Program-made: the position numbers and the translations under genes
Virus record (IMG/VR): IMGVR_UViG_3300001525_000208
Span: 15,019-79,018 of that record
Reading direction: 5' to 3' (one strand)
Length of the DNA: 64,000 nt
From: a virus
Lineage: Duplodnaviria > Heunggongvirae > Uroviricota > Caudoviricetes
Shown here: positions 14,830-64,000 of the stretch, one piece after another
How the letters are laid out: each line of letters opens with the position of its first letter
How positions within the stretch are numbered: the first letter of the stretch is position 1
The notes under the pieces: model-generated
Told to the model about the DNA's origin: nothing
Databases searched by the model: none
The model's input: only the letters and a program-made list of their open reading frames with translations

Positions 14830-15945
14830 CATATACAAAATAATTCTTTACTGCTAAGGGGACTATTCTTGCAGATGGGTCTTTATGATACTCTTTATAA
14901 ATTTCATAGTCTCCTTTTAATTTAATGTGTTCACATTCAGGAGAATTATCAGTGTATACTGCGATGTAGTTATTTCAAGTTATTCGTCTGATTTCTCAGA
15001 AGCTTGGACTATATCTTTATTATTAATTCTTATAATTCTATGTTTTTTAAAGATTACATCATTTATTTTCTTTTTATTAAATGTGGCTATTACATTTTTA
15101 AATCCTAATAATTCTAACTCTTTATATAATATATTTTCTGCAATTAAATCTCCATTAGAATTATAAATTGTATAAGTCCATTTAGTTAAATTTTTTGACA
15201 TTAATTCGCTTTGTTGAGTTTTTCGCTTGTTGTTATCTTTCCAATATTCTTTAAGTTTATCAGAATGATCTTTATGACATCCGTTTTCCCAATCTTTTTT
15301 AGCACGAATACCTATTTTTTCTTTTGTTTCTTCTGAACAAAAACATTTCCCTTTAGAATCCCATCTTAAATTATATCCTTTATTTGGATTTAAGGAATCT
15401 AATTCTTTCATCCAATATAATTCTTTTTCTGCTAAAAGTTGTTCTAAATTAGAATCTTTAATATCAAAATTTTCAACTAAATAATATTCAAAATTATCTT
15501 CTCCATATTTTTTGACAGCATTTAATAAATGTGGATTTTCATTATAATTCCTATTATCTATTTTAATGTCTGTCATATGTTGATGTAATCTTTTATAACA
15601 ATTTTTTGATTTACCGACATAGATTTTTCCATTTATAGAATTTTTTATTACATAAATTCCTGGAAAATTGCTGTTTCTTTTAATATTTTCATAAGTTATA
15701 TAATTAATTATTTATATAGCAATAAATCAAAATTTTGACATATAATTATTAAAATTCATAATACCCAGCGTTTCCATTTAAATTTTAAATGTACTCTACT
15801 CACTTCCGTTAAATAACGTGTTTTCGATAGTCTCTGAACCTTCTTCTACATAGAAGCTTGGCTGCTGATTAGTATACGATTAATCGTCACGATTTGCGCT
15901 TCAACTTTCCAGCAATTAACCGGGTTACGACGCAAATATTATCTT
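14802..15945 (-). mobile_element. Group I intron in polB carrying a GIY-YIG homing endonuclease gene. The 3' end is uncertain (14802-14829).
   Basis: Conserved group I elements were found on the minus strand:
- P-like AATTGCTGGAAAG (plus 15905-15917)
- Q-like AATCAGCAG (15860-15870)
- R GGTTCAGAGACTA (15825-15840)
- S-like AAGAATAGTCCC (14859-14870), which completes P7 (GACTA/TAGTC).
P1 has exon GACGU pairing with IGS GCGUC, with U.G at the splice site. The TAA that appears to end the polB ORF lies inside the intron. Confidence 0.7.
14980..15711 (-). CDS. GIY-YIG homing endonuclease (intron-encoded). The first in-frame ATG is at 15576, but the GIY-YIG motif lies upstream of it.
   Basis: PGIYVIKNSINGKIYVGKS is encoded at about 15610-15663, in frame with the MTD... 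ORF. The frame is open back to a TAA at 15712-15714 and contains no ATG/GTG/TTG. Confidence 0.7.
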   Translation of the reverse strand: MINYITYENIKRNSNFPGIYVIKNSINGKIYVGKSKNCYKRLHQHMTDIKIDNRNYNENPHLLNAVKKYGEDNFEYYLVENFDIKDSNLEQLLAEKELYWMKELDSLNPNKGYNLRWDSKGKCFCSEETKEKIGIRAKKDWENGCHKDHSDKLKEYWKDNNKRKTQQSELMSKNLTKWTYTIYNSNGDLIAENILYKELELLGFKNVIATFNKKKINDVIFKKHRIIRINNKDIVQASEKSDE

Positions 15946-17372
15946 ACGTCCCTCACGCACATCTTTGAGTATACAGTTTCTTCAATTGTTAGTCCCGTTT
16001 CTTCAGTTAATTGATCATTAACTTTTCTTATCTTATCTAAATCCTCTTTAGGTACATATAAGGTTTGCCCATCCGTGTTAGTCTGAATGAATTTCAGTCT
16101 AGGGCATACTTTGACCCATCTTTCTGCCCACATACAGATAAATATCTGTCCTGCAATAGTAGTTTTAAAGGTATATAATGGATCATATAAGAAGGATTTT
16201 TCCTCATTAGACTTGCCATATGTGCCATTCAAAATAAGTTTATATCCTTCAATTAAAACATTATCACGTTGATTTTTAGGCTTATGTTTTTCAGCTAATC
16301 GTGCATCTATAAATCCAATATATTGTTCATTGAATACAGGACCTAAATGTTCAGGATATAGTCCTAATGATTTTGAAATACTCGGGTAGAGCGAACCGAC
16401 ATCGTAGTCTACGATAACCCATTCGTCATTAGTATTCCAAATTCTTGGTCTAGCGCAGCCGTGAGAACCTCCAAGTCCAAAATCAAACTTATAATCGTGA
16501 AATATCACAGACTGTTGAAATTCACCTTTAATTCCTTTGATTGTGATATGTTTTACTGTATCTAAGAATTGATTAAATTCTTTAGACTCAATTTTACACC
16601 ATTTAGGAATACAATCTGATAATTTTATTCCTTCAGGTCTAGGAGTTCCACCTTGTCTTTTTAATTCATTTGGTAATATTCCTACTTTTCTTGCATATAA
16701 ATTTAAAATAAGCTCTTCTCCCATAGGTACATCACCCATATTGAGAACATTTACTTTAAATTTCTTGTTTAAATCCTGCCTAAGTTTAATTTTATTTTTT
16801 CCTTTATATAATGGATATTCCGTTTTACCGAGAGTAGTAAGGAAAAATAAATATGTGGCATAAACGTCATTCTTATTATAAGTAAGAATGCATTTTTCAT
16901 CACCTTTTTTACACCAAGTTGTATGATGAATAGGCATTTCTTCTACATTAGGCATCCTCATACATACTTCTAGGTCCTTGAGACTACATAATCTAGCTTT
17001 ATTATTGTAATGCCAGATTTTGTAAAGATCTAGCTGTTTTATGAGTACATTTCTTTCAGCAATAACAGAAAACTCTTGTTCAATTATCTCTTGTGACTTC
17101 TTATATAACTTTTGAGCTAATTCTTGCCCATCTAAGAATTCATAATCATTAATAAAATGACGTAAGAAATGATGCTCTAACGGGTAATCATATGAAAGGT
17201 TGTTGAACCCAACCTGTATTAATTTATCTCTATTTAAATGCTCATATAGTGATTTAGAGTCGTTTCTCCAATCACAAATAACAAATTGATAATACTTATC
17301 TTCTTTAGGACAATATCCTGTATAAGTAAATACATTACTTAGACATTCTAAATCGTATATTTCTAATATCAA
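15946..17372 (-). CDS. polB: Family-B DNA polymerase, exon 1, with a TTG start
   Basis: Exonuclease motifs:
- Exo I: DLE at residues 7-9
- Exo II: FNNLSYD
- Exo III: YNKND
Polymerase motifs:
- motif A: DYDVGSLYPSI
- motif B: KLILNGTYGK
- motif C-like: TNTDG
The track ORF ends at a TAA at 15939-15941, which lies inside the intron. The true exon ends after ...CVRDV at 15946. Confidence 0.8.
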
Positions 17373-17713
17373 TTCTTGTATACTTTAAATTTAGGTTCCC
17401 AAATTTCACCAATCTTACCTTTTTTGCAACCTAAACCAATCCATTTAATATCTAAGAAATGTTCAAAAATATAAGGAATAATTGTAAATACTATGTTTGG
17501 AATCTCGAAATCATTCCAATATATCATTACAAATGAATCGGTTTCTGTTTTTAAATAATATCCTCTAACTGTATGCGCCCAAGGATACCCGTAATCTGCA
17601 AACCATTCAGCATGGGACATATTTGCGTGTCTAGTATCTGAAAATTTTACTAGTAAACTATCTCCGTCTATATAAAAAGGTTTTCGTTTTTGATGAAATT
17701 CTTCTAATGTCAT
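17369..17713 (-). CDS. Hypothetical protein overlapping the polB start by 4 nt
   Basis: ORF with an ATGA/TTGA-type overlap to polB. No recognisable domain. Confidence 0.4.
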   Translation of the reverse strand: MTLEEFHQKRKPFYIDGDSLLVKFSDTRHANMSHAEWFADYGYPWAHTVRGYYLKTETDSFVMIYWNDFEIPNIVFTIIPYIFEHFLDIKWIGLGCKKGKIGEIWEPKFKVYKN

Positions 17714-18558
17714 AAAAGTATTTTAAGTTTAGTTGAATATTTATCTTTCAGTTTTTTTAATGCAGTTTCTTTAATTTGTCTTACTCTTTCAGTAGTCATT
17801 CCAAACCGTGTTCCAATTTCATCCAATGACATAGATTGAGTATTAATTCCAAAATACATTCTAACTATATCTTGTTCTCTATTACCTAAACTATTAAGAA
17901 CCTTATTAACTTCATAAACTTTAGATTCTTTTAATAAAGTATCATCAGTTTTACTATAACTAGGTAACATATCTCCAAGTGTACTTTCTTCTTCATCATC
18001 AATTGTAATATCTAAAGAAGAACATTTATTCATATATTTAAATACATCAGAAACATAATCTTCACTTGTATTCAAATATTTGGATATTTCTTTTACAGTT
18101 GGAGTTCTTTCTAATTGTTTTTCTAAAGTTGTTCTTGCTTTTTTAACTTTATTAATTTTAGTAATAAAAGTAATAGGGTATCTTATAGTTTTAGAAGCAT
18201 TATATATTGCAGCTACGATAGATTGTCTTATCCACCAAACTGCGTATGAAATAAACTTAAAACCTTTACTTCCATCATACTCTTGTGCTGCTTTTATCAA
18301 ACCTAAATTACCTTCACTTATCAAATCTTCTAAAGATAAACCTTGTCCTTGATATTGTTTAGCTACAGTAATAACAAATTTTAAATTTGATTTGACTAGA
18401 GTATTTAAAGCATCAACATCTCCATTTTTAATTCTATTAGATAATTCAATCTCTTGTTCTAAAGATAAAAAATTACATTTATAGATGTCTTTAAAATATA
18501 AACGAAGAGATTCTCTATCTGTAGGAGTAATTGATTTAGTTTTAGTTATTTTCTTCAT
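17710..18558 (-). CDS. Sigma-70 family RNA polymerase sigma factor (regions 2 and 4)
   Basis: Region 2-like: LVKSNLKFVITVAKQYQGQGLSLEDLISEGNLGLIKAAQEYD. Region 4 HTH: LDEIGTRFGMTTERVRQIKETALKKLK. Confidence 0.8.
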   Translation of the reverse strand: MKKITKTKSITPTDRESLRLYFKDIYKCNFLSLEQEIELSNRIKNGDVDALNTLVKSNLKFVITVAKQYQGQGLSLEDLISEGNLGLIKAAQEYDGSKGFKFISYAVWWIRQSIVAAIYNASKTIRYPITFITKINKVKKARTTLEKQLERTPTVKEISKYLNTSEDYVSDVFKYMNKCSSLDITIDDEEESTLGDMLPSYSKTDDTLLKESKVYEVNKVLNSLGNREQDIVRMYFGINTQSMSLDEIGTRFGMTTERVRQIKETALKKLKDKYSTKLKILL

Positions 18559-24542: not shown

Positions 24543-25061
24543 TTATACCCTGCTTTTCAACATATTTATTTTATTATTAAAATAATCTTTTATATTTTTC
24601 TTTTCTATATCCGAAAGTTTATCAATTTCAGTTTGAATTGCTTTATCATTTTCTTTAAATCTAAATTCTTTTTGGAAATAAACTTCACATAAATAACGCA
24701 AATACACAGCTTCCTCTTTTTTATCAAATTGCTTAAAATAATATCTTATGTTTTTATATGTAAAATCTATTTTCCATTTAAGGTTAGATTTTAATTGAAT
24801 AACTCCTCGAAATCCTGATTTGTTATTTTTACATTTATCCATATTTAACTGATTATCTTCTTTATTTATAATTCGTAAATTTGTTTTACGATTATCTAAA
24901 GAATTTCCATTAATATGATCAATTTCTTTTCCGACAGGATTTCCTAGAATTAATCTGTGAAAATATTCTTTTTGTGAATTTTGATTGCCTGTAACTAAAT
25001 AAGGTTTTTCACCTTTATCTTTTAATACAGTTCTCCATTTAAATTGTTTTGCCTCTTTCAA
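24543..25061 (-). CDS. HNH endonuclease with AP2 DNA-binding domain (intron-encoded homing endonuclease)
   Basis: EIDHINGNSLDNRKTNL is an HNH motif and SGFRGV is AP2-like. The frame stays open upstream to about 25156. Confidence 0.7.
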   Translation of the reverse strand: MKEAKQFKWRTVLKDKGEKPYLVTGNQNSQKEYFHRLILGNPVGKEIDHINGNSLDNRKTNLRIINKEDNQLNMDKCKNNKSGFRGVIQLKSNLKWKIDFTYKNIRYYFKQFDKKEEAVYLRYLCEVYFQKEFRFKENDKAIQTEIDKLSDIEKKNIKDYFNNKINMLKSRV

Positions 25062-25158
25062 ATTATCTTTGTCGAATAAATATGTATATAATACATTTCC
25101 ATATTGATCATATGTATCAATTTCACACTTATCATCTAATATTCTTATTTCATTTGGA

Positions 25159-25320
25159 TCAAAAAACTCCTCTTGAATTTGAATCTAAATTATGACCAAA
25201 TTTAGTAAATTGATGTAAATGTTTCTTACATAAACACATATTGAATTTTTTACTAAAGCTAACAATTTTTTCATTTGAAGAAATTCCACAAATTTCGCAA
25301 TACCTAATAACTTTTCGCAT
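25159..25320 (-). CDS. Small Cys-rich (zinc-ribbon-like) ORF inside the nrdD intron (53 aa)
   Basis: MRKVIRYCEICG...CLCKKHLH. Its stop overlaps the open upstream extension of the HNH frame, offset by one frame. Confidence 0.3.
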   Translation of the reverse strand: MRKVIRYCEICGISSNEKIVSFSKKFNMCLCKKHLHQFTKFGHNLDSNSRGVF

Positions 25321-32946: not shown

Positions 32947-33735
32947 TACATTAATTCAACATCCATAATTTCTCCTAAAAGAAATCCACAATCGTAAGCT
33001 TCGTCTAGAAACTCTTCCCAATCACTACAATAAGGAGTATCATGGTCTCTAGCAAATTTTGAAATGTATTTGTCTTTAGCTTCATTCATTGAACGAGCCA
33101 TAACATAATCTGTCCAAACAACATTTTCATTTAAATCAGCTACAGCTATTATATATTTATTCATATCTTAGTTATTATAAGATTTAAGTAATTCGTAGAA
33201 AAAGTTTTTATCAATCATAACCAATTCACCAGCACTGCTCATATTTACTTGGCCTTCTTTAACTTCTTGACGATTCCACATTATTACAAAAGGTTTATCT
33301 TCAAGAGGACAAGCACTTCTAATTTTAAAATAATTAGGAGTGTTGGTAGTACATTTAAGTTGACAATAGAAAGGTAATTTATTTTCTGTATCTACTAAAT
33401 CAACTTTCATATCATCCATTCTTTTGGACTGACTTCTAGATGTTACAACACCTGTGTAACCAAGTTCATTTAATTCGTGAGCTATTTTCAATTCATAGTT
33501 GTTACCTTTACTTTTAGAATAAGAACCTGAACGTCTTTTCTTTTTTGCTTTTTCTTGGTCACAAAGCGGACATCCTGAATGAGTTAATACTTTTTTAGCT
33601 ATTTGATGAACTTCTCCGTGAATAGGACATTTATAAATTATGTCTTTATCTAAACCCTAATAATTACTTTCTGAAAAATCAAATTTATCTCCGTGTTTAA
33701 GCTTTACCTTTTCAACAAAAGACTCTATAGTCTGT

Positions 33736-34740
33736 TTAGCCATTGTTTTTAAGTTTTAAAATATTTGTTTTTAAAAATTCTATTGTTTTTTCTCTTCCGT
33801 ATTTCTTATAGAAATCACTAATATCTTTAGCTTTAAAAGTATTTGGAATAAAAAAATAATTTAGTTCAGGATAAGAATGTCTTATCTTTGCTAAATTGTA
33901 TTTACCTGCTCTATCATTATCATAGTGAACTACAATATATTTGAACCGAGATTTTAAATCGTCTAATACTTTTTGTTCTAAAAATAAAGTTTCTGAATTA
34001 GGAGCAATAGCAGTAATTCCTAAAGAATAATAAGTCATTGTATCTTTCATGCTTTTAGTAATTACTAAAAGTTTACCTTCTTTAGGAAGTTGTTTGAAAC
34101 CTTGTATTTTCTTTGCAGGATAATTACCTAAAAATCTATAAGATTTTCGTTTAGGAAAATACATTCTCCATAATTCAATGTCCTTTTGCTTTCCTCCATA
34201 ATATCCGTAAATTGGACAATTTTTAGAGGAAGTACTTATTAAACTACCATTAAGAAATACGTTTTTACAAGAATAAACATTAAATTTCTTTAAAATTTTT
34301 AATGTAATACCATATTTAGACCACCATTCAAGTTCATCTTCCGAAAACTCTTTTATTTCTGCTTGTAAAAATGTACTACCTTTAGTATCTATTTCTTTTA
34401 CAGGAATAATTTTTGTTTTCTTTACAACTTGTTCTTCTATTAGATTAAAATCACTTGCAATTATTTTTAATGCTTTATAGTAAGAACAATTATATTTTTC
34501 CATTACTACATTAAAACAATTATAATGTTTATTAGTAGCAAAATCATGGAAATAAACTATCCCTGACTTAGATTTATAAACACCACAAGTAGGATTTTTA
34601 TCATCCCTAAAAGGAGAAACAAAGAGTTTTTTAGTTTCTATTGCAAAACCTAAATAATGACTTAATATAGTTTCTTGATTGACTTTAGATAATATAAAGT
34701 CTTTAGTGATTTTTGATCCTATACTAAAATTAAAATCCAT
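33736..34740 (-). CDS. DNA primase (Toprim domain)
   Basis: N-terminal Cys/His zinc-binding region. Toprim-like LLVITKSMKDTMTY ... VVHYDNDRAGK (DxD). Confidence 0.55.
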   Translation of the reverse strand: MDFNFSIGSKITKDFILSKVNQETILSHYLGFAIETKKLFVSPFRDDKNPTCGVYKSKSGIVYFHDFATNKHYNCFNVVMEKYNCSYYKALKIIASDFNLIEEQVVKKTKIIPVKEIDTKGSTFLQAEIKEFSEDELEWWSKYGITLKILKKFNVYSCKNVFLNGSLISTSSKNCPIYGYYGGKQKDIELWRMYFPKRKSYRFLGNYPAKKIQGFKQLPKEGKLLVITKSMKDTMTYYSLGITAIAPNSETLFLEQKVLDDLKSRFKYIVVHYDNDRAGKYNLAKIRHSYPELNYFFIPNTFKAKDISDFYKKYGREKTIEFLKTNILKLKNNG

Positions 34741-37164: not shown

Positions 37165-37993
37165 TGTATCTTTAGCCAAATTTGTTATCTTAAAGGCTCT
37201 TTATCCTTTAATTCTATACTTTTATTTATATGTATAGTTCAGACTATATCTTTCATTCATTTTATATTCTCACGAATTTTACTCTGAACAGTGCCCCGCT
37301 TTCGTGGATGATTTTATAGCCTCGTCTTTCTCGTTAGGCATCACATCTAGTCGTTTAGCTTTTTCCTCAATTTCTTGAGGGTTTAGCACAAGATTGTCCT
37401 TTTCAGGAGTTTCCCTGTTTAACGGAGTTTTATAATGACACTTATAACTTATATTTCATGCAAGATACTATATAAGGCTCTATCAATCTTTTAAATTTAG
37501 GATATTCTTTACTTGGAATATATACAAGATTATCGGACTTATTATTTAAAGTTATAAAAATATTAAATTTAACTTTAAACATTTCTTTTATTAATTCTAA
37601 CTCTTGTTTAGAAAAATTATTAGTACATAACATACATCCTCCATAAGGATTACATTTATACCCATCATCCATATACCAGATAGCTAGTCCAAGAGGTTCT
37701 ATTTTAAATAAGTCATCCTTATATACTGTTTTCACTGGACGATACCAATTATAAAACATAGCATTTAATGATATAGAGGATTTAGTATAAAAAGAATAAT
37801 TATAATATTCAGGATTTTTTCTTCCGTTTGGTGGAAGTTTGTTATTTTTTCTAATTTTTGCAATAGTAGATTCAGAATCACCTGAAATTCTGGATATTTC
37901 AGAATCTTTTAATCCTTGTTCATAAAATTCTAAAAATTGATAGATTTCAAAATAGTTTTTCTTAAATTTCTATAAATTAATTATTTTATCATT
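37165..37993 (-). mobile_element. Group I intron in the dnaB-like helicase gene with a LAGLIDADG ORF in its 5' region. Boundaries are approximate.
   Basis: Minus-strand elements:
- S AAGATATAGTCTGAAC (37237-37252)
- R-like ACGACTAGA (37346-37354)
- GTTCAGAG (37283-37290)
- P-like AATTGAGGAAAAAG (37358-37371)
- P9-like hairpin CTATAC...GTATAG
The helicase is broken exactly in motif H4. Exons 1 and 2 are in different frames, which excludes an intein. Confidence 0.6.
37442..37759 (-). CDS. LAGLIDADG homing endonuclease (intron-encoded). Its frame is continuous upstream through an HTH-like segment to the TAG that ends helicase exon 1.
   Basis: LGLAIWYMDDGY is a LAGLIDADG motif. The upstream in-frame extension (37760-37969) encodes ...LKDSEISRISGDSESTIAKIRKNN (HTH-like). 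Confidence 0.6.
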   Translation of the reverse strand: MFYNWYRPVKTVYKDDLFKIEPLGLAIWYMDDGYKCNPYGGCMLCTNNFSKQELELIKEMFKVKFNIFITLNNKSDNLVYIPSKEYPKFKRLIEPYIVSCMKYKL

Positions 37994-38740
37994 AATACTA
38001 AAGGCCGATTTTCCCTGTTTGAATCTCTCGATATTACCTTGTTCGCGATTAGCTTGTTGGATTACGACAGGACTTATCTTACATTTCTCTCTTAGTACTA
38101 CTAAGTATGCAGATAAGTTATCGATTTCTTTCTTTAAAGTATTCCCTTGCTGAGGTCTTATTAATCCTATATGATCTATAATTACATTATATATCAAATT
38201 AGGATTATAAGGAGTATAAATGAGTCGGTTTTCACTTTCGGAAAAAGTTCCCATTTCCTCAAGTCGTTTCTTTAAAATTGAATAAACTGTATTAGCATTT
38301 ACTTGTTTATCGTAAATTTCCAGTTTACTTTCAATTTTATCTATCCAAGGTTTACACTTTTTGATTAATTCGTAATATTCCTCAGATAATACATAATCTC
38401 GTTCTCTAGATAGTATCTTTTTATAAGATAGTTCAATTCCATAGGTTTCAAATAAATACATAGACAATAACTTTATAAACAACGAAGTTGCATTCATTTC
38501 TAGAGAGAAATAAATAATTTTAAAGTCATCATCGTCAATATGAGCTTGTAAAGGTTTAAAAACATACGAGTAAAGTGCAAAACTCGTCTTACCTGCACCC
38601 GAATTACTCAGGATAAGTGTGTAAGTTTCACGAGTTACACCATCTATTATGCTTTCTAACTTAGGAAGACCCATAGGTATACCTTTATTTAAACCTAATC
38701 TACCTCTTTCAATTTCATTAAAGACACTGTCTGAAATCAA
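37994..38740 (-). CDS. dnaB: DnaB-like replicative helicase, exon 1 (RecA-like ATPase core)
   Basis: Walker A LSNSGAGKTSF, Walker B/H2 IIDHIGLI, and H3 VVIQQANREQGN. It stops within H4 (KSAFSIN...) at the intron boundary. Confidence 0.7.
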
Positions 38741-54582: not shown

Positions 54583-54873
54583 TTAGCCAACTTCTACATC
54601 AGAGATTTCTCCCTGTGTACTCATACCTATATTTTTACCTCTATAATTATCCGTAAAAGCATGACAATTAGGACATAATACTTGAAGATTACAAAGCCTT
54701 AAATCATCCTTAATACCATTTATATGATGTAACTCTAATTTAATAGGCTTTTCTAACCATTCAGTTCTTCCACAACACTCACATTTATATTCTTTTACAT
54801 TTTCTTTTAGTAATCTTTCACGAAGATGATTAGTGTTTATAAATGTAGAATGTTCTACTAAGATTTCAGACAA
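54583..54873 (-). CDS. HNH endonuclease (free-standing)
   Basis: Two CxxC pairs and ELHHINGIKDDLRLCNLQVLCPNCH. Confidence 0.65.
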   Translation of the reverse strand: MSEILVEHSTFINTNHLRERLLKENVKEYKCECCGRTEWLEKPIKLELHHINGIKDDLRLCNLQVLCPNCHAFTDNYRGKNIGMSTQGEISDVEVG

Positions 54874-55435
54874 AGGTTGTTTTTGTTTAATTTGTCTATA
54901 TCTTTTTCCCTAATTCCATACTTTTCCAGTCATATGAGAGGTATCTAAATTTAATTCATCAATTTTTCGTTTTATAGTATCATAGTTACTTCCTGCAACT
55001 TTAAGTCCTATTTTTCGTAGAACTTTTGCATAAGATAAGCTAGTTTTTACTGCTTCAATAAATTGAATATATCAAATTAAATTTAGGTGAATTTATTTTC
55101 TTCAAAGTCTACTGCGTTTACCTATTTCGCCATCGAGCCGATAACTAGTTTATTTTATTCCTAAACTAGTAAAAGAATACTTTTTAATCTTCACATACAA
55201 CTACTGAATCTGTATTAATAGAATCAGAATCAACTACAGTAGAATCTTGTTCAGAAGATGATTCTACATGTTTGTTACAACTAATAAATGAAGTACTAAA
55301 AAGTACTGCAAATACAAAAATAAGCTTTTTCATATTAAATATATTTTTAATTATTAATATTCAAATTAAAAATTACTCTATTCTCACGAACCAAGTAATT
55401 CAAGTTATCAAACGTTATTTCACATAATATAATTG

Positions 55436-55517
55436 TTGGAATAATAGGAATCGAACCTATATTATCTGGCCCAAAATCAGATGTAATAACCATTATACTA
55501 TATTCCAGTTTGTAGAA
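55436..55517 (-). tRNA. tRNA-Gln (anticodon UUG)
   Basis: Acceptor TGGAATA/TATTCCA (U1-A72, as in bacterial tRNA-Gln). Anticodon loop TTTTGGG with a 4-bp stem plus A.C. T-arm ATAGG-TTCGATT-CCTAT. Confidence 0.65.
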
Positions 55518-55656: not shown

Positions 55657-56990
55657 TTAGATAATATTTTATTAATATTATCATTTTAATTACTAATACT
55701 GTTTATAAATATACTCTTTATTTTTTTAATTACAAAAATGCTTAACTGTTAAATGATTTTAAGAGCTAATTATGATTTTTGTAATGTTGAGTTTACAATC
55801 CAAGATACTATAAATACAGATTCAATTTTCGGATTTAATTCGTGAATATTAAAACCCCTTTCTTTAATATCATTAATAATATTATCTTTAGAATCTAATA
55901 AATCGGGTGTAAGTTCTACTAAACAATAAGATTTATTATTTCTTGCTTTATTAGTGATTATATTATTTAAATCTTTAATAAAATCACTAATCCGTTTGTC
56001 TAAGGATTCCAATTTTCCTGTAATTGAAAGTAATCTTGCATCTTCACTTGTAATTGGTTTTTGTTTCGGTGAAATAATTGTTTTTAAAATATCTGTCATG
56101 GTTTGTAAATTTTATAACCTTTCTTTAATAAATAATTAATACAATATGATTCTTCATTGAATACTAATTCAGTATTAGTAGAATTACGTTTTCTAGCATA
56201 ACATTGTTTAGTTTTCTCATTTTTGTATTCTTTAATTTGAGTCATTAAATTTGCGATTTTTTCTTGGAGAATATTAGTTGGACTAAAATAATACTCTCTT
56301 TTATCTCTAATTATAGAATTAGTATTAATTAATTTTTGAAGAAGTGCTAATCCGTTAGGATATTGTTTGAATTCTTTTTCAAGTTCGTAACGTAAAAATC
56401 TACGACCTTTACTTGCTAATCTGAAAGAATTAATTTCTATTGTAATATCTGAAATTGTCATTGTTGTTTGAATTTTATCTTGTTATTAAATAAGGTATTC
56501 TCTAAGATACTTATTTTACTAAGCACTTAAAGAATACCGAGCCTTTAGTATATTCCACCTAAAGGGAGATTTCTACATTAAAGATTGATATAATATGTTG
56601 AATTTCATGCATATAGTGAATGTCAGCAATGAAGACTGATAAGCTTCCAAAACCTGTAATAATTTCTAGATATACACCAATGCAATCACTTTCCATGTTC
56701 AAACGAATTCTTCTATTATCATCAATATATTTAACAATATTCTTAATATACTGATTTTCTTTATGTTTATAGAAGTGATTTGATTTGAGATGTTTTTTGA
56801 AGATTTCACATGGTTTTATTTCTTCTAAAGGTACAGTTAATGTATCTTCATCTTGAAATTGAATCTTAGCGAAAGTTTCACTTACACCAAGAATAATTAC
56901 TACATCATGGTGATAAGTTACAATGTCGTTGATTTTGAGATCTGTTGCTTTCATTTTGTTGTTGTTTTAGTGAGTGAATAAATGGATTTG

Positions 56991-57062
56991 TCCTCATAAT
57001 AGGAATCGAACCTATAACTATATCTTATAAATGATTTGTTTTACCAATTAAACTATATGAGG
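56991..57062 (-). tRNA. tRNA-like gene with a degenerate anticodon arm (possibly Ile-UAU; the loop contains TTTATAA)
   Basis: Perfect acceptor CCTCATA/TATGAGG, D-stem GTTT/AAAC, and T-arm ATAGG-TTCGATT-CCTAT. The 17-nt anticodon-arm segment AATCATTTATAAGATAT cannot form a 5-bp stem. Confidence 0.45.
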
Positions 57063-57720: not shown

Positions 57721-58645
57721 TTTGTTAATTATTATTGTTTGTTCTTTTTATCTTGAGTGTAACAAATAGTCATTAATAAACAACCATTTGTAAATGTTGA
57801 TAATGCTAATCCTACTACAAATGCAATAGTACAAGGGTCATTGTTTAAAAGACCTATACAAGTACAAATAAGTAGAACTAAAGTACAGCAACAAGAGAAA
57901 ATTAATGATTTCATTTTGTTTGGTTTTATATAACTGAGGTTTTAGATATTATTTTCATACCAATCTGCTACAGTGTCAAATTCTTCTTCTGTAAGGTCTG
58001 ATACTGTAGTATAGTAGTTACAAGCTGTTATGTATTTAGCTTGTGAGCAAGTGGACTCTATAATAGAATCCAATTTGTTAAGGCATTCTTGTTTTGTCAT
58101 TATCTTATACGATTTAATTTATACTATTGCGAGGTTTCACAGACACAGAGCCATTATCTATATGATAGTTTCTCTCTGTGTTTCGTCCAGTCTCATCAGT
58201 ATGAATTTTAACGTCTCCTGGATGACGATTTTTTACTTTTTAGCAAACAAGAAATGAACATTAATTTGATAGTTTGACCTTATACTAACTATTCAAGGTT
58301 TTGTTGATAAAATGGTTAATTCGTATTAAGTTGGGATAATTTTGGATTTGGTTGGTGTGGGTGATGGTTGTGTTGGGAGGGTGGTGATGAGCTGCTTCGT
58401 TCTTAACATATCACGAACGATACACCAATACACCTTTCCATCAATTAACCAATCTTCTCCACCACGAATACTCATCCATTTACCAGACTCAACATCTTTG
58501 TACAAACTGTCACCATACTTACGTACTTTGACAGTCTTAAGTCTTTCGTCAGGATGCATAATATGTATACATATTAAAATCTAAAAACTTAAGTTACTTC
58601 GAATGACTCGTTATAACCTAAATTTTTAGATTTTTTCAACATATA

Positions 58646-59131
58646 CTACTCTGCATCTATGGTAGGAATATTAGTATTTACGAGAGCATCACCATCAAAA
58701 TTGAGAGTTTTGATAGTCATCATGTCCGAAAACTTAATCTTCTTACCTCCGAAATACTTAACTGCTTCGTCAATTGAGGCAAACTCACGGAACTTTTCTG
58801 CACAAGAACCAGTAGTATGAACTCGGTTACCTGTAGGAGTCATGTCGTCATTATATACGGCACGAGACTTCCACATAATTGACGGATAGAATCGCTTAGC
58901 GCAATTCTTAGTACCTGTTGTTGCGTTGGATACATCAACAAGAATGAACTGAGCACTATTGGTTCCAATCTTCTGATTGTAAACCTTGTACTCTTCAGGC
59001 ATTACGAACTCATCACCTTTCTCAAACGAGTTAAGGTCTACATCACGAGTTGCGCCAGTAAATGCATTACCAGCTACTTCAATACCTTTTGTCTTAGAAA
59101 GACGATCGATTTCAACAGTCATTGCTGCCAT
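58646..59131 (-). CDS. Hypothetical protein inside the GC-rich segment
   Basis: 161-aa ORF. Local GC and amino-acid composition (A/G/T/V-rich) differ from the rest of the window. Confidence 0.4.
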   Translation of the reverse strand: MAAMTVEIDRLSKTKGIEVAGNAFTGATRDVDLNSFEKGDEFVMPEEYKVYNQKIGTNSAQFILVDVSNATTGTKNCAKRFYPSIMWKSRAVYNDDMTPTGNRVHTTGSCAEKFREFASIDEAVKYFGGKKIKFSDMMTIKTLNFDGDALVNTNIPTIDAE

Positions 59132-60016
59132 TGTCTTGGTGTGGATTTACCTATATCACCCACGAGGTTTTAATAAAAATTGGAATCACTGTCTTAGGTG
59201 GATTCATAACCTACGTATACATTTATACTCCTATACGCAGAGTAGACAAGCGGTTGCTTGCCTACATCGCTATCGCAAGTTATACCTTTGGCTATTTTTT
59301 ATAATATATATTGGCTATCTTTACCCCCTTTCCGACCTCGGCAACGGATGCCCGATGAGGGGCACCACGTTGTGAGGTGTGGGAATCAATAGCAATTGTA
59401 AAACGCTATCGTGGAAAGGTTGTAAACCTTTTCGGTTTCGTTTGCAATGTATTCAAGTTCTTTGCCTTGTTCAACACAATCGCAAAGAACTTTAAAGACT
59501 CTGCGTTTTATCCAATCTTGCGAGTTTTTCGGTTTGAGTGGAACGTTATTGTAGATAATTGCAAATTCGGGATGCCTAATGCTTTGCAGTGCAACGTATG
59601 TTTTTGTTTGCTCTATGATTGCGAAGCGGTCAAATTTGTATTCGGAATTGTCGGAAATGATTGCTTTAAAAATGTTGTTCATTGTTGTATGAGTTTTTTT
59701 GTTGTTGGTGGAGTTGAGTATAAATAAGCCTTTTTACAACGTGCTTAGGTTGTGTTTGTTTTATTTCTCTGTAACGTAAGATATAAGAGAGAAAACGAAC
59801 TTAAAGAAAAGTCCATAGAATAAAAACATTAGGAAAAGATTAAGTGCGTAAGGTTCGGTATAGCCAAAAACCAAAGTTGCAACAATCATAAGAACTAACA
59901 CCAATGCAGATGTTATGCCAAAGAAAAGAATATTTTTCATTTTCGTAAAATTTTGATGAGTTGTAAGTGATTAAATATGCACGTTGATTAAACGCTCAAC
60001 GTGCAAAGCGTGTGTG

Positions 60017-60439
60017 TTAAACGAAATCAATAACTAAAACACTTGCTTGCCCGTTGTCAGTTAAGAAATAGTCCTTTGTTAGATTAAGGATTTTATCCTT
60101 AACTTGTGCAAACATAGCGTCCATTACGTTTTCGTTGGTTTTGTCGGTGATGGAATCGGCTGCCTTTTTCATCGCCTCAACCGCTGCGCCGTGTGCGGTG
60201 TGTGGCTTTGCGTTCTTATCAAGTTTAACCTTGAAAAGCGATGAAGCGTAAACTGGAATGTTTTTATTAGTAAGGAAAATGGGGCAGTTGGTTACGCTTT
60301 CCTTAAACTGAACTTGCGAAAAACTCCAACCGATAATTTGAAGTTTGCCTTCTTGCAAACCTCCGAAATTAAATTGTTGGTTGAAGGCTTCGTTCTCTTT
60401 GCGTTTGTCTTCTGCGACGATTGTAGCGTTAAATGCCAT
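60017..60439 (-). CDS. Hypothetical protein inside the GC-rich segment
   Basis: 140-aa ORF with atypical (higher-GC) composition. Confidence 0.4.
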   Translation of the reverse strand: MAFNATIVAEDKRKENEAFNQQFNFGGLQEGKLQIIGWSFSQVQFKESVTNCPIFLTNKNIPVYASSLFKVKLDKNAKPHTAHGAAVEAMKKAADSITDKTNENVMDAMFAQVKDKILNLTKDYFLTDNGQASVLVIDFV

Positions 60440-60906
60440 AGTAATAAAATTTTAAGTGAGTAATTAAATGAGTGATTGTGTGCGAGCCGAGGGCGTACCC
60501 CCTGTTCGATAGAACAGTATAGGAATATATATGCTGGCTATTTTCCATCCGATGGGGGGAGGGGGTCCCCACCGGAGGTCTACCCACCCGCCCATCACCA
60601 TCAAAAATTTTACTCCAAAAAATCCACCCATATAACATAAGAAGGAATTTTTATCTAACTCATTGATTATCAGTGACTTACAAAATTTATAGTCATTATC
60701 AGATGTGTCACAATTTTAATGACTTTGAATTTTAGATTTAATTTTTTGAAATATAAAAATTATGACTATGTTTAATAATAAAAGTAAATCGTATGAAACA
60801 ATTCTGCCAAGTGTATATTATTTAAATCCTGAATATTTCTTTAAAGGTAAAATTTTAGATAGAACTAATATTATTAAAAATATAGTTGAATATAAATTTG
60901 TATAAA

Positions 60907-60940
60907 ACAAAAAACGCAGATTCTTTAATTAGAATCTGCG
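60907..60940. terminator. Hairpin terminator (bidirectional), 3' of late gene 60946..62145
   Basis: aacgcagattct-ttaatt-agaatctgcgtt is a 12-bp perfect stem flanked by A/T runs. Confidence 0.6.
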
Positions 60941-60945
60941 TTTTA

Positions 60946-62145
60946 TTATTTAATTCTTCGAATTAATCCACCGTTTTTATAATTATTACTTTTAGATGCC
61001 TATATCTGTTTCTTAACTTCATCAACAGCTTCTTGAGAAACACCTAAACCTTTTAATACTCTTTGACCTTCTTTCATTGCATTTCCAGTATCATCAAAAA
61101 TATCTCTACCTGTTGCTGCATTATATCCATCATCAGTTGCACTTAGTATACTTACAATATCATCTCCATGAAATTTATTTAATGTAACAAGTGATCCTAG
61201 ATCTAACAATGTATGAACTATATTCTTAGCAGAAACATCATTTATTAATGATTTAGCATCAAGACCAAAATCAGGAAGATTCTGTGCAATCATATGATAT
61301 ACTTTATATTTAGAAGGAAATAAACTAACAACATTATTCCATACTGATAATCCTGAAGCTATTCTTTGTAATACTTCATTATCACTATCTGCTAATAAAC
61401 CAACTCCATCACCTAATAATGAAAATGCATCTACTCCTAATTGAACTTTATCCCAAGTACTCTATCCTTTAAACCACTGACCTGCTTTAATACCATATTT
61501 TTTGGCATAACTGGCTACTTGTTTAGCAATTTGACCTGCGTATTTAGAAGCGTAATTGACTAATTTAAAAGCTTGTGGTGCAAAAGATGCTGCACCTTCT
61601 AGTAATATTGGTGAAAGAATAAGTCCAGCGGCTACAGCAGCAGTAAAGTTACCTGCACTTTCAAAAGCATCATGAATTTCTGCATATCCTTTAGGATTTC
61701 GAATAGATTCAAAATTACCTGCTTCAGTTAAAGTTTTAGGTTTAGCCCAAAGATTATTACTGGAAATCCAATCACGAAGGTTGTCTTGTTGCTAAACATC
61801 ATCTATTAATATGTTATAATTTTTATCTACTAATACTGTTTTACCGTCTACTGTATTAATAAATGAATAACCTTTTTCTTTAGCAACTTCAGGAGGCATA
61901 ACAAGTTCTCCTTTATTATTATATCTGAATCCTTGTTTTATCTATTCATTAGTAAGTTTATTCGTTCCATATCTAATTCCTTGTTTAACTTCATTTTGTG
62001 CTTCATTTCTTTTATCATTTTCACGCCAAAGTTCTACTTCAGAATCTTCTGAGAATAAATCGTTATTCCAACTTTTATTAACTATAGAATTATTTTTAAT
62101 TGGTTTGACAGGGTTTCCTGAAACTTTAATTTCAATATCAGCCAT
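60946..62145 (-). CDS. Late protein (about 400 aa), readable only with TAG translated. It has four in-frame TAG codons.
   Basis: Track ORFs 61942..62145 and 61000..61293 share one frame. The intervening stops at plus 61942-44, 61792-94, 61462-64 and 61000-02 are all CTA, which is TAG on the minus strand. The frame terminates with TAA at 60946-48. Confidence 0.6.
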
Positions 62146-62160
62146 AATTTTAAGTTTATA

Positions 62161-62216
62161 CTATTTTTGAATTATATTTACAATAATACTATTTTTGAAT
62201 TATATTTACAATAATA
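62161..62216 (+). promoter_or_regulatory. Tandem 28-bp direct repeat carrying a Bacteroidetes-type promoter (-33 TTTG and -7 TAttTTTG), oriented toward gene 62265..62687. A third, inverted copy of the core lies at 62284-62304.
   Basis: ctatttttgaattatatttacaataata appears twice (62161-62188 and 62189-62216). TTTG at 62166-69 and TATTTTTG at 62190-97 are spaced 20 nt apart. Confidence 0.5.
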
Positions 62217-62264
62217 CTGAAAAGTTCTTCATCGTAATTTCAGACGATTTACAAATTTTAATAT

Positions 62265-62687
62265 TTGGAATTATTGAAAAATTATATTATTATTGTAAAT
62301 ATAATAATTAAATACTTATTGATAATGAAAAATGAAATAATTAATGAATGGTTGAAGAGTTTTGGAACTCTTATTAATAAAGAAAAATCAGAAGGAGTTA
62401 CTCATTACGAATTTGACTTTGAAGGGTCACCTGTTCATATTTGGACAAGTGACGGAATGCTTAAATTAGAGTATAAATATAACAATCTTGAAGATGAGTT
62501 TTTAAAGTATTGTGAATCTTTAGATGATGATATTTTTGTAGAAGCTTGTGAACGTTTTAATGAATATAAACCTATTAGAGAATTTTCAAAGAATATAAAT
62601 TCTGAAGATATTAAATTTTTTAAGACTATAGTTGAAAAAATTGTCTGTGAAAAAATTAATTATTATAAAGAAATGATAGAAAGATAA
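62265..62687 (+). CDS. Hypothetical protein (standard code, TAA stop)
   Basis: 140-aa ORF downstream of the promoter repeat. Confidence 0.45.
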   Translation: MELLKNYIIIVNIIIKYLLIMKNEIINEWLKSFGTLINKEKSEGVTHYEFDFEGSPVHIWTSDGMLKLEYKYNNLEDEFLKYCESLDDDIFVEACERFNEYKPIREFSKNINSEDIKFFKTIVEKIVCEKINYYKEMIER

Positions 62688-62688
62688 A

Positions 62689-62713
62689 CAATAACTACTC
62701 TTTAAAGAGTAGT
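62689..62713 (+). terminator. Palindromic hairpin downstream of 62265..62687
   Basis: aactactcttt|aaagagtagtt is a perfect 11-bp palindrome followed by tctatt. Confidence 0.4.
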
Positions 62714-62719
62714 TTCTAT

Positions 62720-62793
62720 TGGAGTGTAGTATAAAGGTTTAATTACGATGGTCTCTAAAACCGAAGATCTGAGTTCGAGTCTCAGCGCTCCGA
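62720..62793 (+). tRNA. Amber suppressor tRNA (anticodon CUA), type I. Its acceptor and D-arm resemble the phage tRNA-Gln(UUG), so Gln identity is predicted.
   Basis: Manual fold:
- acceptor TGGAGTG/CGCTCCG (two G.U)
- U8
- D-arm GTAT-AAAGGTTTAA-TTAC with GG
- anticodon stem ATGGT/ACCGA with loop C-U-CUA-A-A (CUA at 62755-62757)
- 4-nt variable loop
- perfect T-arm CTGAG-TTCGAGT-CTCAG
- discriminator A. Confidence 0.75.
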
Positions 62794-63020
62794 CTATTTA
62801 ATTCAATACCTGATATGTTAGATAAATTTACTAATTACTTATTAAAGAAAATGTATAATCAATCTATTAATATTTGTAATAATATAGATAAAATTGTACG
62901 TATTTCAAATAAACAAAACACTCAAGATTTTATAAATTGGCAAGATGCTTTAAATAAGATAAGTGTAAAATAATTAATTTTAAACCAAGCGGGCCTATTC
63001 AGGTTCGCTTTTATTTTTAT

Positions 63021-64000
63021 ATGGCGAAAAAAACATACGAACACAGACCTATTGCGGTAGCACAAAGTGATGCTACTAATGTAAATTCTCGAATTAGATC
63101 TTTCTTAGAAACTCTACGTGCTAATGATAGAGCTAAAGCGGTTGAAGATATTAATGAAGATTCTTATTGGGGTTAGTTTAATCCTGAAGGAGGATGGGTT
63201 ATTTTGCGAGAAACATATACGCTCAAACCCACTTTATATTATAAAGATGCGTCTGATAAACTACACGCTGTACCTGAAAAATATATTAATTCTATTATAA
63301 AGAATCATCATGGACTTTATAGAGATTGGAATGAAGCAGAAACTGATTATTAGAATAATTTAATAAAATTTGGACTTACTCCTACTGTAGTAAGTGCAGC
63401 TCCTGTAGATAATAGAAGTGAAGCTATTAAAGAATATGAACGAAGAGGAAGACGTGCTGCTTATGAACACGATCAAGCAGAAGCTGACGCTTAGAAGGGT
63501 ATTAATATTGCATTGAATGCTATGTCACCTGGTTATTATATAGATAAGACAGGCATACTAGATAATATGTCTGAAGCAGATGCAGAAATTACTAAGGTTG
63601 GGGCTGATTTCGCCCCTGTTATTCTGACAGCTGGTGCTCAAGCTGGTGCTCAAGCTGGTGCTCGGATTGCAAACAGTTTAGTTAAAAGAGCTGCACGAAG
63701 AGCCACGCAAGCTTCAGCTAGAGAAGCAGAACAAGTTTTAGCTAGAGAAGCAGAACAAGTTTTAGCTAGAGAAGCAGAACAAGCAATGGTCAAAAGAGCG
63801 AAAGAATCATTGGCTAGACAAGCTTCAGCTAGAGAAGGAGAAACTATTGTTAATAGACCAGTTAATTTTGAAGACTTGGTGGCTGCTTATTCTAAAAAAG
63901 GTAAAAAAGGTAAAAGAGCACCTTAGCCGAATAGAACTACAGTTGAAACACCTGTTAAACCTGCAGAACCTGTTAAACCTGCAGAACCTGTTGTTGAAAC
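63021..64000 (+). CDS. Late protein, 3'-partial, readable only with TAG translated. It has four in-frame TAG codons and internal tandem repeats (GAQA x3, AREAEQVL x3, PVKPAEP x2+).
   Basis: ATG at 63021. In-frame TAGs at about 63174, 63351, 63492 and 63924, with no TAA or TGA to the window end. Nucleotide tandem repeats at 63630-63662, 63717-63784 and 63951-63990. Confidence 0.6.
63717..63784 (+). repeat. 24-nt tandem repeat (2.8 copies) encoding AREAEQVL
   Basis: gctagagaagcagaacaagtttta is repeated exactly twice, then a third copy is diverged at its end. Confidence 0.8.

Follow-up and report, generated by a model that had tools for sequence, protein, structure and literature searches.

A 64,000-nucleotide stretch of phage DNA (the window; from record IMGVR_UViG_3300001525_000208) carries on its minus strand, between positions 60946 and 62145, a frame punctuated by four TAG codons. 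We conclude that this frame, hereafter the target, very probably represents one functional gene, monocistronic and belonging to a crAss-like gut phage with TAG recoding, in which TAG is most likely read as glutamine. An earlier note, made from the letters of the window, had proposed a 400-amino acid (aa) protein obtained by reading through the TAGs. The frame runs from ATG to TAA as claimed, but holds 399 sense codons, the figure of 400 including the stop. The gene and its TAG codons are as follows, with L numbers denoting loci in related phages.

60946..62145, minus strand: the target, a protein-coding gene of 399 codons and a TAA stop that uses TAG as a sense codon at four in-frame sites (ATG at 62145-62143, TAA at 60948-60946).
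61942..61944, minus strand: TAG codon 68; TAG in all three lineages (window, L001-L004 and L005).
61792..61794, minus strand: TAG codon 118, within the conserved N-domain block LVDK-YNIL--DV[x]-Q--L-DWI.
61462..61464, minus strand: TAG codon 228, at the junction of the N-terminal half and the C-domain; TAG in L001, TTA (Leu) in L005.
61000..61002, minus strand: TAG codon 382; CAG (Gln) in L001, TAG in L005 and L015.

The CTA triplets at 61000, 61462, 61792 and 61942, which the note had placed in frame with the ATG at 62145, are indeed these TAGs (codons 382, 228, 118 and 68, respectively). They cut the target into segments of 67, 49, 109, 153 and 17 codons. No TAA or TGA occurs in the 399 codons of this 28% GC sequence; shuffled versions of the gene contained 27.2 on average and never fewer than 10 (20,000 shuffles), and the Poisson probability of finding none is approximately 1.6e-12. 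The remaining five frames over the target contain 12 to 73 TAA or TGA codons apiece.

A homologue search of 5.8 billion proteins recovered only two relatives, the full-length orthologues P0001 (399 aa, 89% identical) and P0002 (395 aa, 82%). Their DNA was found in five independent assemblies (L001-L005), one of them a Logan contig and the other four ENA contigs, the longest of 109 kb. In window numbering, the in-frame TAG codons fall at positions 61, 68, 118 and 228 in L001-L004 and at positions 68, 118, 205, 288 and 382 in L005. At codons 205, 288 and 382, which represent three of the five variable sites of the target, TAG in one genome corresponds to CAA or CAG in another. The sole length difference among the orthologues is a deletion of four codons that keeps the frame.

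The ratio of nonsynonymous to synonymous substitution rates (dN/dS, Nei-Gojobori method) was between 0.12 and 0.70 in all five inter-TAG segments and in all three pairwise comparisons, with dS values of 0.15 to 0.36 among the window and the orthologues. Even the 17 codons past TAG-382 showed no nonsynonymous versus four synonymous changes against L001. The most constrained part of the target is segment 3 (codons 119-227). In the window, the target lacks an in-frame ATG, GTG or TTG between codons 84 and 284, 167 codons without an in-frame start follow TAG-118, and similar gaps are found in the relatives. Lacking a start codon, segment 3 is therefore translatable only by ribosomes that have passed TAG-118. 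In addition, the region around TAG-118 is ungapped, with its conserved block, in 11 distant homologues. Thus, the target is one 399-codon frame under purifying selection throughout. The orthologues, the dN/dS values, the lack of starts and the TAG-118 block together exclude, for practical purposes, a series of small open reading frames (ORFs) or a pseudogene, both of which are discussed below. The idea of one protein made by read-through is borne out by orthologue conservation, exchanges between TAG and Gln codons, absence of internal starts, domain continuity across TAG-118 and a neighbouring tRNA with anticodon CUA.

Two domains can be delineated in the product.

61567..61938, minus strand: N-domain, codons ~70-193, defined by profile search, alignments, hidden Markov model (HMM) matches in related loci and tblastn.
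61003..61398, minus strand: C-domain, carrying the motifs PD--(Y)D, H--LD and DD-Y-A-TG-D (codons ~250-381).

TAG-228 lies at the boundary between these domains, which are found separately elsewhere, and it is kept in the window, L001-L004 and L015. One may thus envisage partial suppression generating a ladder of products of 67, 117, 227, 381 and 399 aa, with TAG-228 as a programmed switch and both the N-only and the fusion forms functional. Nevertheless, the 227-aa product would already require read-through at TAG-68 and TAG-118, and L005 has Leu in place of TAG-228 with no other change. Moreover, at the dS values given above retention of a TAG is expected by descent, and selection for it is unnecessary. 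We regard this switch as improbable. At 7300-8456 of L015, a 100-kb relative, the N-terminal half of the orthologue is broken by frameshifts and TAA or TGA stops. The C-domain is intact there as a 151-aa ORF with three TAGs, whose ATG is located one codon after the equivalent of TAG-228. This locus looks like domain loss in progress.

The assignment of TAG starts from a tRNA gene on the other side of the divergent region upstream of the target.

62720..62794, plus strand: suppressor tRNA with anticodon CUA, 75 nt (ARAGORN; 50.1 bits with the Rfam tRNA model).

This tRNA(CUA) is 575 nt from the target across a promoter-like region, and it is found at the same position in L001-L004. Its first ~27 nt, comprising U1, the 5' strand of the acceptor stem and the D-arm, are close to those of the phage tRNA-Gln(UUG) at 55435-55507. 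The 973-aa, 14-TAG protein encoded at 154-3075 was aligned to its counterparts in MT837483 (recoded, 32 TAGs) and MT835470 (non-recoded, 0 TAGs). Gln was the top TAG partner (9 of 47, versus a background of 3.3%; P = 2e-5), with E, K and R the next commonest. The gene starting at 63021 also has one TAG-CAA exchange relative to its orthologue. The orthologue without any TAG is encoded at MT835470.1 31818-35085 (L012), in a 117-kb faecal phage; the contrast between 0 and 32 TAGs indicates that the genetic code differs among fairly close relatives. The correspondence of TAG to Gln is statistically well supported in these alignments, and the phage tRNA(CUA) most likely mediates it. This agrees with published proteomics on two other TAG-recoded crAss-like phages, which provided evidence for genetic code 15, in which TAG specifies Gln (PMC9523058).

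It is very improbable that TAG encodes pyrrolysine or Leu instead. ARAGORN labels the tRNA 'Pyl', and TAG is exchanged with TTA or TTG (Leu) at two sites. However, the label is generic for any CUA anticodon, the tRNA resembles the phage tRNA-Gln closely in its 5' half, TAG is paired most often, and with significant enrichment, with Gln, and the proteomics cited above gave evidence for Gln. Neither the tRNA, an ordinary 75-nt cloverleaf like tRNA-Gln with a score of 50 bits, nor the Gln-enriched TAG partners pointed to pyrrolysine decoding, with no search aimed at pyl genes.

Another tRNA of the window, at 56990-57062 on the minus strand, has an 8-nt anticodon loop (AUUUAUAA). ARAGORN assigned it the 4-base anticodon 'ttat', and it scored 57 bits with the Rfam tRNA model. 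It has the same T-arm as the phage tRNA-Gln(UUG), and ARAGORN gave no such call in L001. Possible roles of this tRNA are decoding of UAA, as an ochre suppressor with anticodon UUA, decoding of AUA (anticodon UAU, Ile) and frameshift suppression.

If TAG were a true stop, the five segments would represent as many separate small genes, or TAG-228 would divide the target into at least two genes. The earlier note had stated that matches of the segments to distinct small proteins would refute a single protein. There are database entries of this sort: P0004 (67 aa) is identical in extent to segment 1, and P0049 (97 aa) matches, by length only, the distance from M285 to TAG-382. They do not refute the single gene, as both appear to be fragments such as arise when genes of recoded relatives are called with the standard code. 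Other phages do encode the C-domain as a genuine protein of its own, of ~160 aa, and the ORF of L015 that starts after the TAG-228 equivalent encodes the C-domain only. On the other hand, neither segment 3 nor the first 56 residues of segment 4, which include the beginning of the C-domain, has a start codon, and TAG-118 lies inside a contiguous conserved domain. Segments are also fused in L005, by TTA at codon 228, and in L001, by CAG at codon 382. The chance that small genes account for the locus is accordingly slight.

Still less credible is a decaying pseudogene with nonsense mutations, as suggested by four premature stops under the standard code and by the truly decayed N-terminal half in L015, because every 'nonsense' codon is TAG, with no TAA or TGA against ~27 expected and no frameshifts, dN/dS is below 1 in all segments, even past the last TAG, TAG density matches that of neighbouring essential-looking recoded genes, tRNA(CUA) is adjacent, and real decay as in L015 looks different.

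The full-length database entries were called under code 15, the Q at TAG sites being inserted by the gene caller. We dropped the Q at position 382 of P0003 as independent evidence for Gln, since its DNA (L015) has TAG there; the Q at position 118 of P0007 was unverifiable and was not used. Neither the 67- and 97-aa fragments nor the Q-inserted full-length entries are thus reliable at face value, which is a lesson for annotation.

The following elements flank the target.

60911..60944, minus strand: hairpin of an intrinsic terminator, 1 nt past the target stop; its 14-bp stem (5 G-C pairs) closes a 6-nt loop and is followed by TTTTTTGTTTT.
62149..62216, minus strand, upstream of the target: tandem 28-nt promoter-like repeat with two exact copies of TATTATTGTAAATATAAT (62171-62188 and 62199-62216).
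62288..62305, plus strand: third exact copy of this 18-mer, facing the divergent gene 62325-62687.
62325..62687, plus strand: TAG-free 120-aa gene, divergent from the target and preceding the suppressor tRNA; no TAG, CAA or CAG.
63021..64000, plus strand: first TAG-containing gene of the plus-strand recoded module, with 4 TAGs in 326 codons; runs off the window end.

The strong hairpin terminator that had been noticed immediately after the TAA is present. The 51-nt stretch that contains it (60900-60950) folds with an RNAfold energy of -19.8 kcal/mol, and a G+C-containing stem-loop with a T-run, downstream of the stop, is what is predicted for an intrinsic (Rho-independent) terminator. The hairpin is flanked by an A-tract on one side and a T-tract on the other. 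Since the A-tract is opposite the T-run and a small ORF converges on it from 60762-60905, the terminator is probably bidirectional and common to that ORF and the target.

This 47-aa plus-strand ORF is what remains, at the C-terminal end, of a RepL-like gene of 147 aa, of which L001 has an intact copy. Where the other part of that gene would lie, the window has a GC-rich, ORF-less stretch at 60440-60760 (core ~60480-60610), and MT835539 is 85% identical over 60812-60899. We considered the GC-rich stretch as a structured RNA and rejected it: Rfam gave no match, and the folding z-score of 60465-60625, -1.3, was unremarkable.

The ATG of the target (62145) and that of the divergent gene (62325) delimit a 179-nt intergenic region, which contains all three exact copies of the 18-mer found in the 64 kb. 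L001 keeps the three-copy arrangement, including the tandem pair, with an identical A-to-T change in both tandem copies. The plus-strand unit consists, in order, of the TAG-free 120-aa gene, whose L001 orthologue also has 0 TAGs, the suppressor tRNA and the first TAG-containing gene. Having its own promoter-like element and its own terminator, the target looks monocistronic. We infer that both directions of the divergent region would fire together, producing the target mRNA and its decoding tRNA simultaneously. A phage RNA polymerase sigma factor is encoded in the replication block at 17710-18558, minus strand (PHROG 351, E=3.5e-69), and is a candidate for regulating the promoter-like 18-mer of the 62.2-kb junction.

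The window opens with the TAG-rich plus-strand gene at 154-3075, followed by a ~57-kb minus-strand block (3.1-60.5 kb), the target and the plus-strand genes from 62325. PHROGs assigned the minus-strand block to replication and nucleotide metabolism, with NrdD, Dda-like and other helicases, a ligase, a DNA polymerase, a primase, exonucleases, the sigma factor and ThyX. The share of TAG among Gln-equivalent codons, TAG/(CAA+CAG+TAG), was determined across these genes.

Target, minus strand: 4/19 (21%).
154-3072, plus strand: 14/46.
63021-63998, plus strand: 4/13.
Six large replication genes, minus strand: 0/80.

TAG thus makes up 21-31% of Gln-equivalent codons in the target and the plus-strand genes. 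The earlier note had inferred from the target that the recoded module is not strand-specific. There is indeed a recoded gene on the minus strand, but the statement is near-trivial, as no genetic code is tied to a strand. Recoding in the window follows gene class, not strand (0/80 versus 4/19), and the target is a minus-strand exception, probably because it is functionally part of the plus-strand module.

In five of eight replication-block ORFs that end in TAG (minus-strand ends 5232, 7176, 9247, 22263 and 57150), a TAA or TGA follows 0 to 3 codons later, and in two others (56559 and 58646) a second stop is located 15 to 18 codons downstream. Such backup stops look like insurance against late read-through, as expected if TAG turns leaky late in infection. 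We also considered as recoded genes the many other minus-strand ORFs with in-frame TAGs, and rejected them, as they are mostly upstream over-extensions or have terminal TAGs with backup stops.

The minus-strand block is otherwise essentially free of TAG, the exceptions being two or three homing-endonuclease-like ORFs with one TAG each. Homing-endonuclease-like or accessory ORFs with one apparently internal TAG are located at 33168-33743, 54583-55071 and 24543-25274, all on the minus strand. The TAG of the first is codon 29 and comes after a good N-terminus, whereas that of the second lies in an HNH-type 'WN#GK' stretch. At 37442-38740 on the minus strand, a DnaB-like helicase fragment of 256 aa ends in a TAG that leads into an in-frame LAGLIDADG endonuclease ORF of 174 aa, which suggests that the helicase gene is split by an intron or intein-type insertion. 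Similarly, the DNA polymerase ORF at 15939-16961 (minus strand) covers only positions 183-500 of a 663-position profile, suggesting another split gene.

We next turn to the product. An exhaustive HMMER search of 1.84 billion representatives yielded 23 relatives of the target. The N-domain heads proteins of 455 to 1142 aa, several with an HExxH motif near the C-terminus. The C-domain forms a protein of ~160 aa by itself in phages of ~90 kb, of which at least one is classified in Crassvirales. The target thus appears to belong to an unannotated family whose two domains occur in different combinations. When the target, the neighbouring genes and 10 homologues were compared with Pfam and PHROGs, nothing emerged except a PT-TG match of the target (PF14449; 16.7 bits, E=0.0075, residues 329-370, DDGYNA-TG-D), below the gathering threshold of 23.5. 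Profile searches of the PDB with both domains gave nothing meaningful. AlphaFold2 models were too poor for structural claims (mean confidence, pLDDT, of 35 for the full-length protein and of 52 for the C-domain, with 26 sequences), and Foldseek found no match at E<=0.001 in BFVD and PDB; P0001 and P0002 stood in for the window protein in the structure work and in the search of representatives. Searches of annotated phage genomes by tblastn with the target, and with the 700-aa HExxH partner described below, had no match. Scanning IMG/VR with the full-length target alignment gave no relatives, and scanning it with the N-domain profile gave one locus, L013.

The N-domain includes a further feature.

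61579..61656, minus strand: Gly/Ala-rich hydrophobic segment, codons 164-189 (Kyte-Doolittle 19-residue mean up to 1.73).

An equivalent G/A-rich segment is present in the target homologues, and it is possibly a membrane-active helix.

In other phages, the N-domain heads a 760-aa HExxH protein encoded after a lytic transglycosylase. A ~925-aa protein, a lytic transglycosylase and a 145-aa protein precede the N-domain protein in L006, L008 and L010. The equivalent positions in the window lineage are occupied by a 699-aa protein, a glucosaminidase, a 71-aa protein with two transmembrane (TM) segments and a 700-aa HExxH protein. The orthologue of gene 63021 in L003 has 699 aa and 6 TAGs, and the glucosaminidase follows it. 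This module of the relatives corresponds to DNA past the right end of the window. With 7 TAGs among its 246 codons, the glucosaminidase gene of L001 (6101-6841) has a higher TAG density than any other gene considered here; after it comes the gene of the two-TM, holin-like protein (L001 5896-6111), with 1 TAG. The TAG load of these two genes fits the published bias of recoding to lysis genes. In the ~90-kb genomes L014 and MH552500 (the latter Crassvirales, Intestiviridae), which use the standard code, the C-domain gene comes last after a giant ORF of 4,253-4,683 aa and abuts the replication block. These neighbourhoods indicate that both domains belong to the non-replication side of the genomes. 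In such genomes, this side encodes virion, ejected and lysis proteins.

From this context, we tentatively propose that the target product is a virion-internal or ejected protein, or a late protein acting on the cell envelope, with the odds somewhat short of even. A more elaborate picture is unlikely: a modular late family in which the N-module (~120 aa plus the Gly/Ala-rich, membrane-active segment) would serve for delivery or anchoring, the C-modules (an HExxH metalloprotease-like domain in some phages, the DD-Y-A-TG-D domain in the target) would be swappable and TAG-228, at the junction of the modules, would switch between N-only and fusion products.

In the model that we favour, that of a single recoded gene, a host using the standard code would at phage entry stop translation at codon 68 (or at 118, 228 or 382). 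Full-length protein would be made only after the suppressor tRNA has accumulated, making the target a late product despite its 'early' strand. It would belong with the products of the adjacent cluster, namely the peptidoglycan hydrolase, the holin-like protein and the large HExxH protein.

A number of observations weigh against this model. The partner of TAG is TTA (Leu) at codon 228 and ACG or TCG at codon 61 of the target, and the gene starting at 63021 has one TAG-TTG exchange relative to its orthologue. The Q residues of database proteins are not independent evidence because those proteins were called with TAG as Q. Translation of the target and the amino acid inserted at TAG are deductions from sequence, and the aminoacylation identity of tRNA(CUA) is deduced solely from resemblance. 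Late expression is argued from the TAG codons of the target, its presumed need for tRNA(CUA), its position and its resemblance to proteins of late modules. The 18-mer is confined to this junction in the 64 kb, and there is therefore no tie to a known class of late promoters. Fusion of the N- and C-terminal parts is not obligatory, because in L015 the N-terminal half has decayed and the C-domain survives. Finally, as the target has no Pfam, PHROG or PDB relative and the AlphaFold models are poor, its function is argued from position.

Elsewhere in the window, a RAGATH-1 hammerhead ribozyme was identified at 58137-58228, minus strand (65.2 bits; gathering score, 56.3), close to the tRNA cluster and flanked by minus-strand genes. 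Window positions 58000-64000 had only three DNA-level matches in the phage collection, of which two, both with annotated crAss-like phages (cr131_1 and cr272_1), fall on this ribozyme.

Recoding of TAG to Gln (code 15) in late genes of crAss-like phages with phage suppressor tRNAs has been published (Yutin et al. 2021, PMC7886860; Borges et al. 2021, bioRxiv 10.1101/2021.08.26.457843; Peters et al. 2022, PMC9523058). Borges et al. proposed that recoding times the expression of late and lytic genes, and described standard-code "code-change" units upstream of recoded lysis genes (bioRxiv 10.1101/2021.08.26.457843). While the recoding itself was thus already known, what is worth recording here is the annotation pitfall and the modular unannotated family. 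The locus also illustrates clearly that in gut phages the recoding of stop codons goes with expression class, and not with strand or genome block: although it lies alone on the strand of the replication genes, the target is as heavily recoded as the main module, and it has a promoter-like region in common with the suppressor-tRNA unit.

As in code-15 crAss-like phages, the window belongs to a low-GC (~28%) gut phage, relatives of which have contigs of ~100-109 kb. It also shares with them the confinement of TAGs to non-replication genes, tRNA(CUA), the exchanges between TAG and CAA or CAG, and replication genes in the standard code. The single-TAG homing-endonuclease-like ORFs inside the early block recall another case of Borges et al., a recoded intron endonuclease inside an early gene of a TGA-recoded lineage (bioRxiv 10.1101/2021.08.26.457843). 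The evidence for membership in Crassvirales is indirect and consists of the primase relatives and the presence of the C-domain family in MH552500, the hallmark major capsid protein (MCP), portal and TerL genes lying outside the window. The best annotated relatives of the primase are Crassvirales at ~36% identity, and closer ones (52%) belong to unannotated ~120-kb human faecal phages.

Podoviruses carry clusters of internal virion or ejection proteins, such as T7 gp14-gp16, of which gp16 contains a lytic transglycosylase. Like these clusters, the N-domain homologues are found beside a peptidoglycan hydrolase (SLT or glucosaminidase) and very large proteins, and they have a G/A-rich hydrophobic segment. 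However, they show no sequence or structural similarity to any characterised ejection protein, and the peptidoglycan-hydrolase neighbourhood could equally be a lysis cassette. With the PT-TG domain of polymorphic toxins (PF14449), the target shares a weak DDGYNA-TG-D match and modular domain combinations; it differs in that the match is below the Pfam threshold and no toxin domain follows the C-domain.

The divergent unit resembles the 'code-change module' that Borges et al. described in Jade phages, with a standard-code 120-aa gene and a suppressor tRNA directly upstream of recoded genes, which in relatives of the window include a peptidoglycan hydrolase and a holin-like protein. In contrast with the Jade phages, the codon is TAG rather than TGA, the phage lineage is another one, and the window yielded neither a tRNA synthetase nor a release factor. 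In the crAss-like phages of Borges et al. (bioRxiv 10.1101/2021.08.26.457843), structural and lysis genes are adjacent and form one alternatively coded unit. Unlike this arrangement, the target is detached and inverted, a divergent, monocistronic gene on the replication strand, head-to-head with the suppressor-tRNA unit. As far as can be read from its sequence, the target locus nevertheless fits the published picture of recoding in every respect tested.

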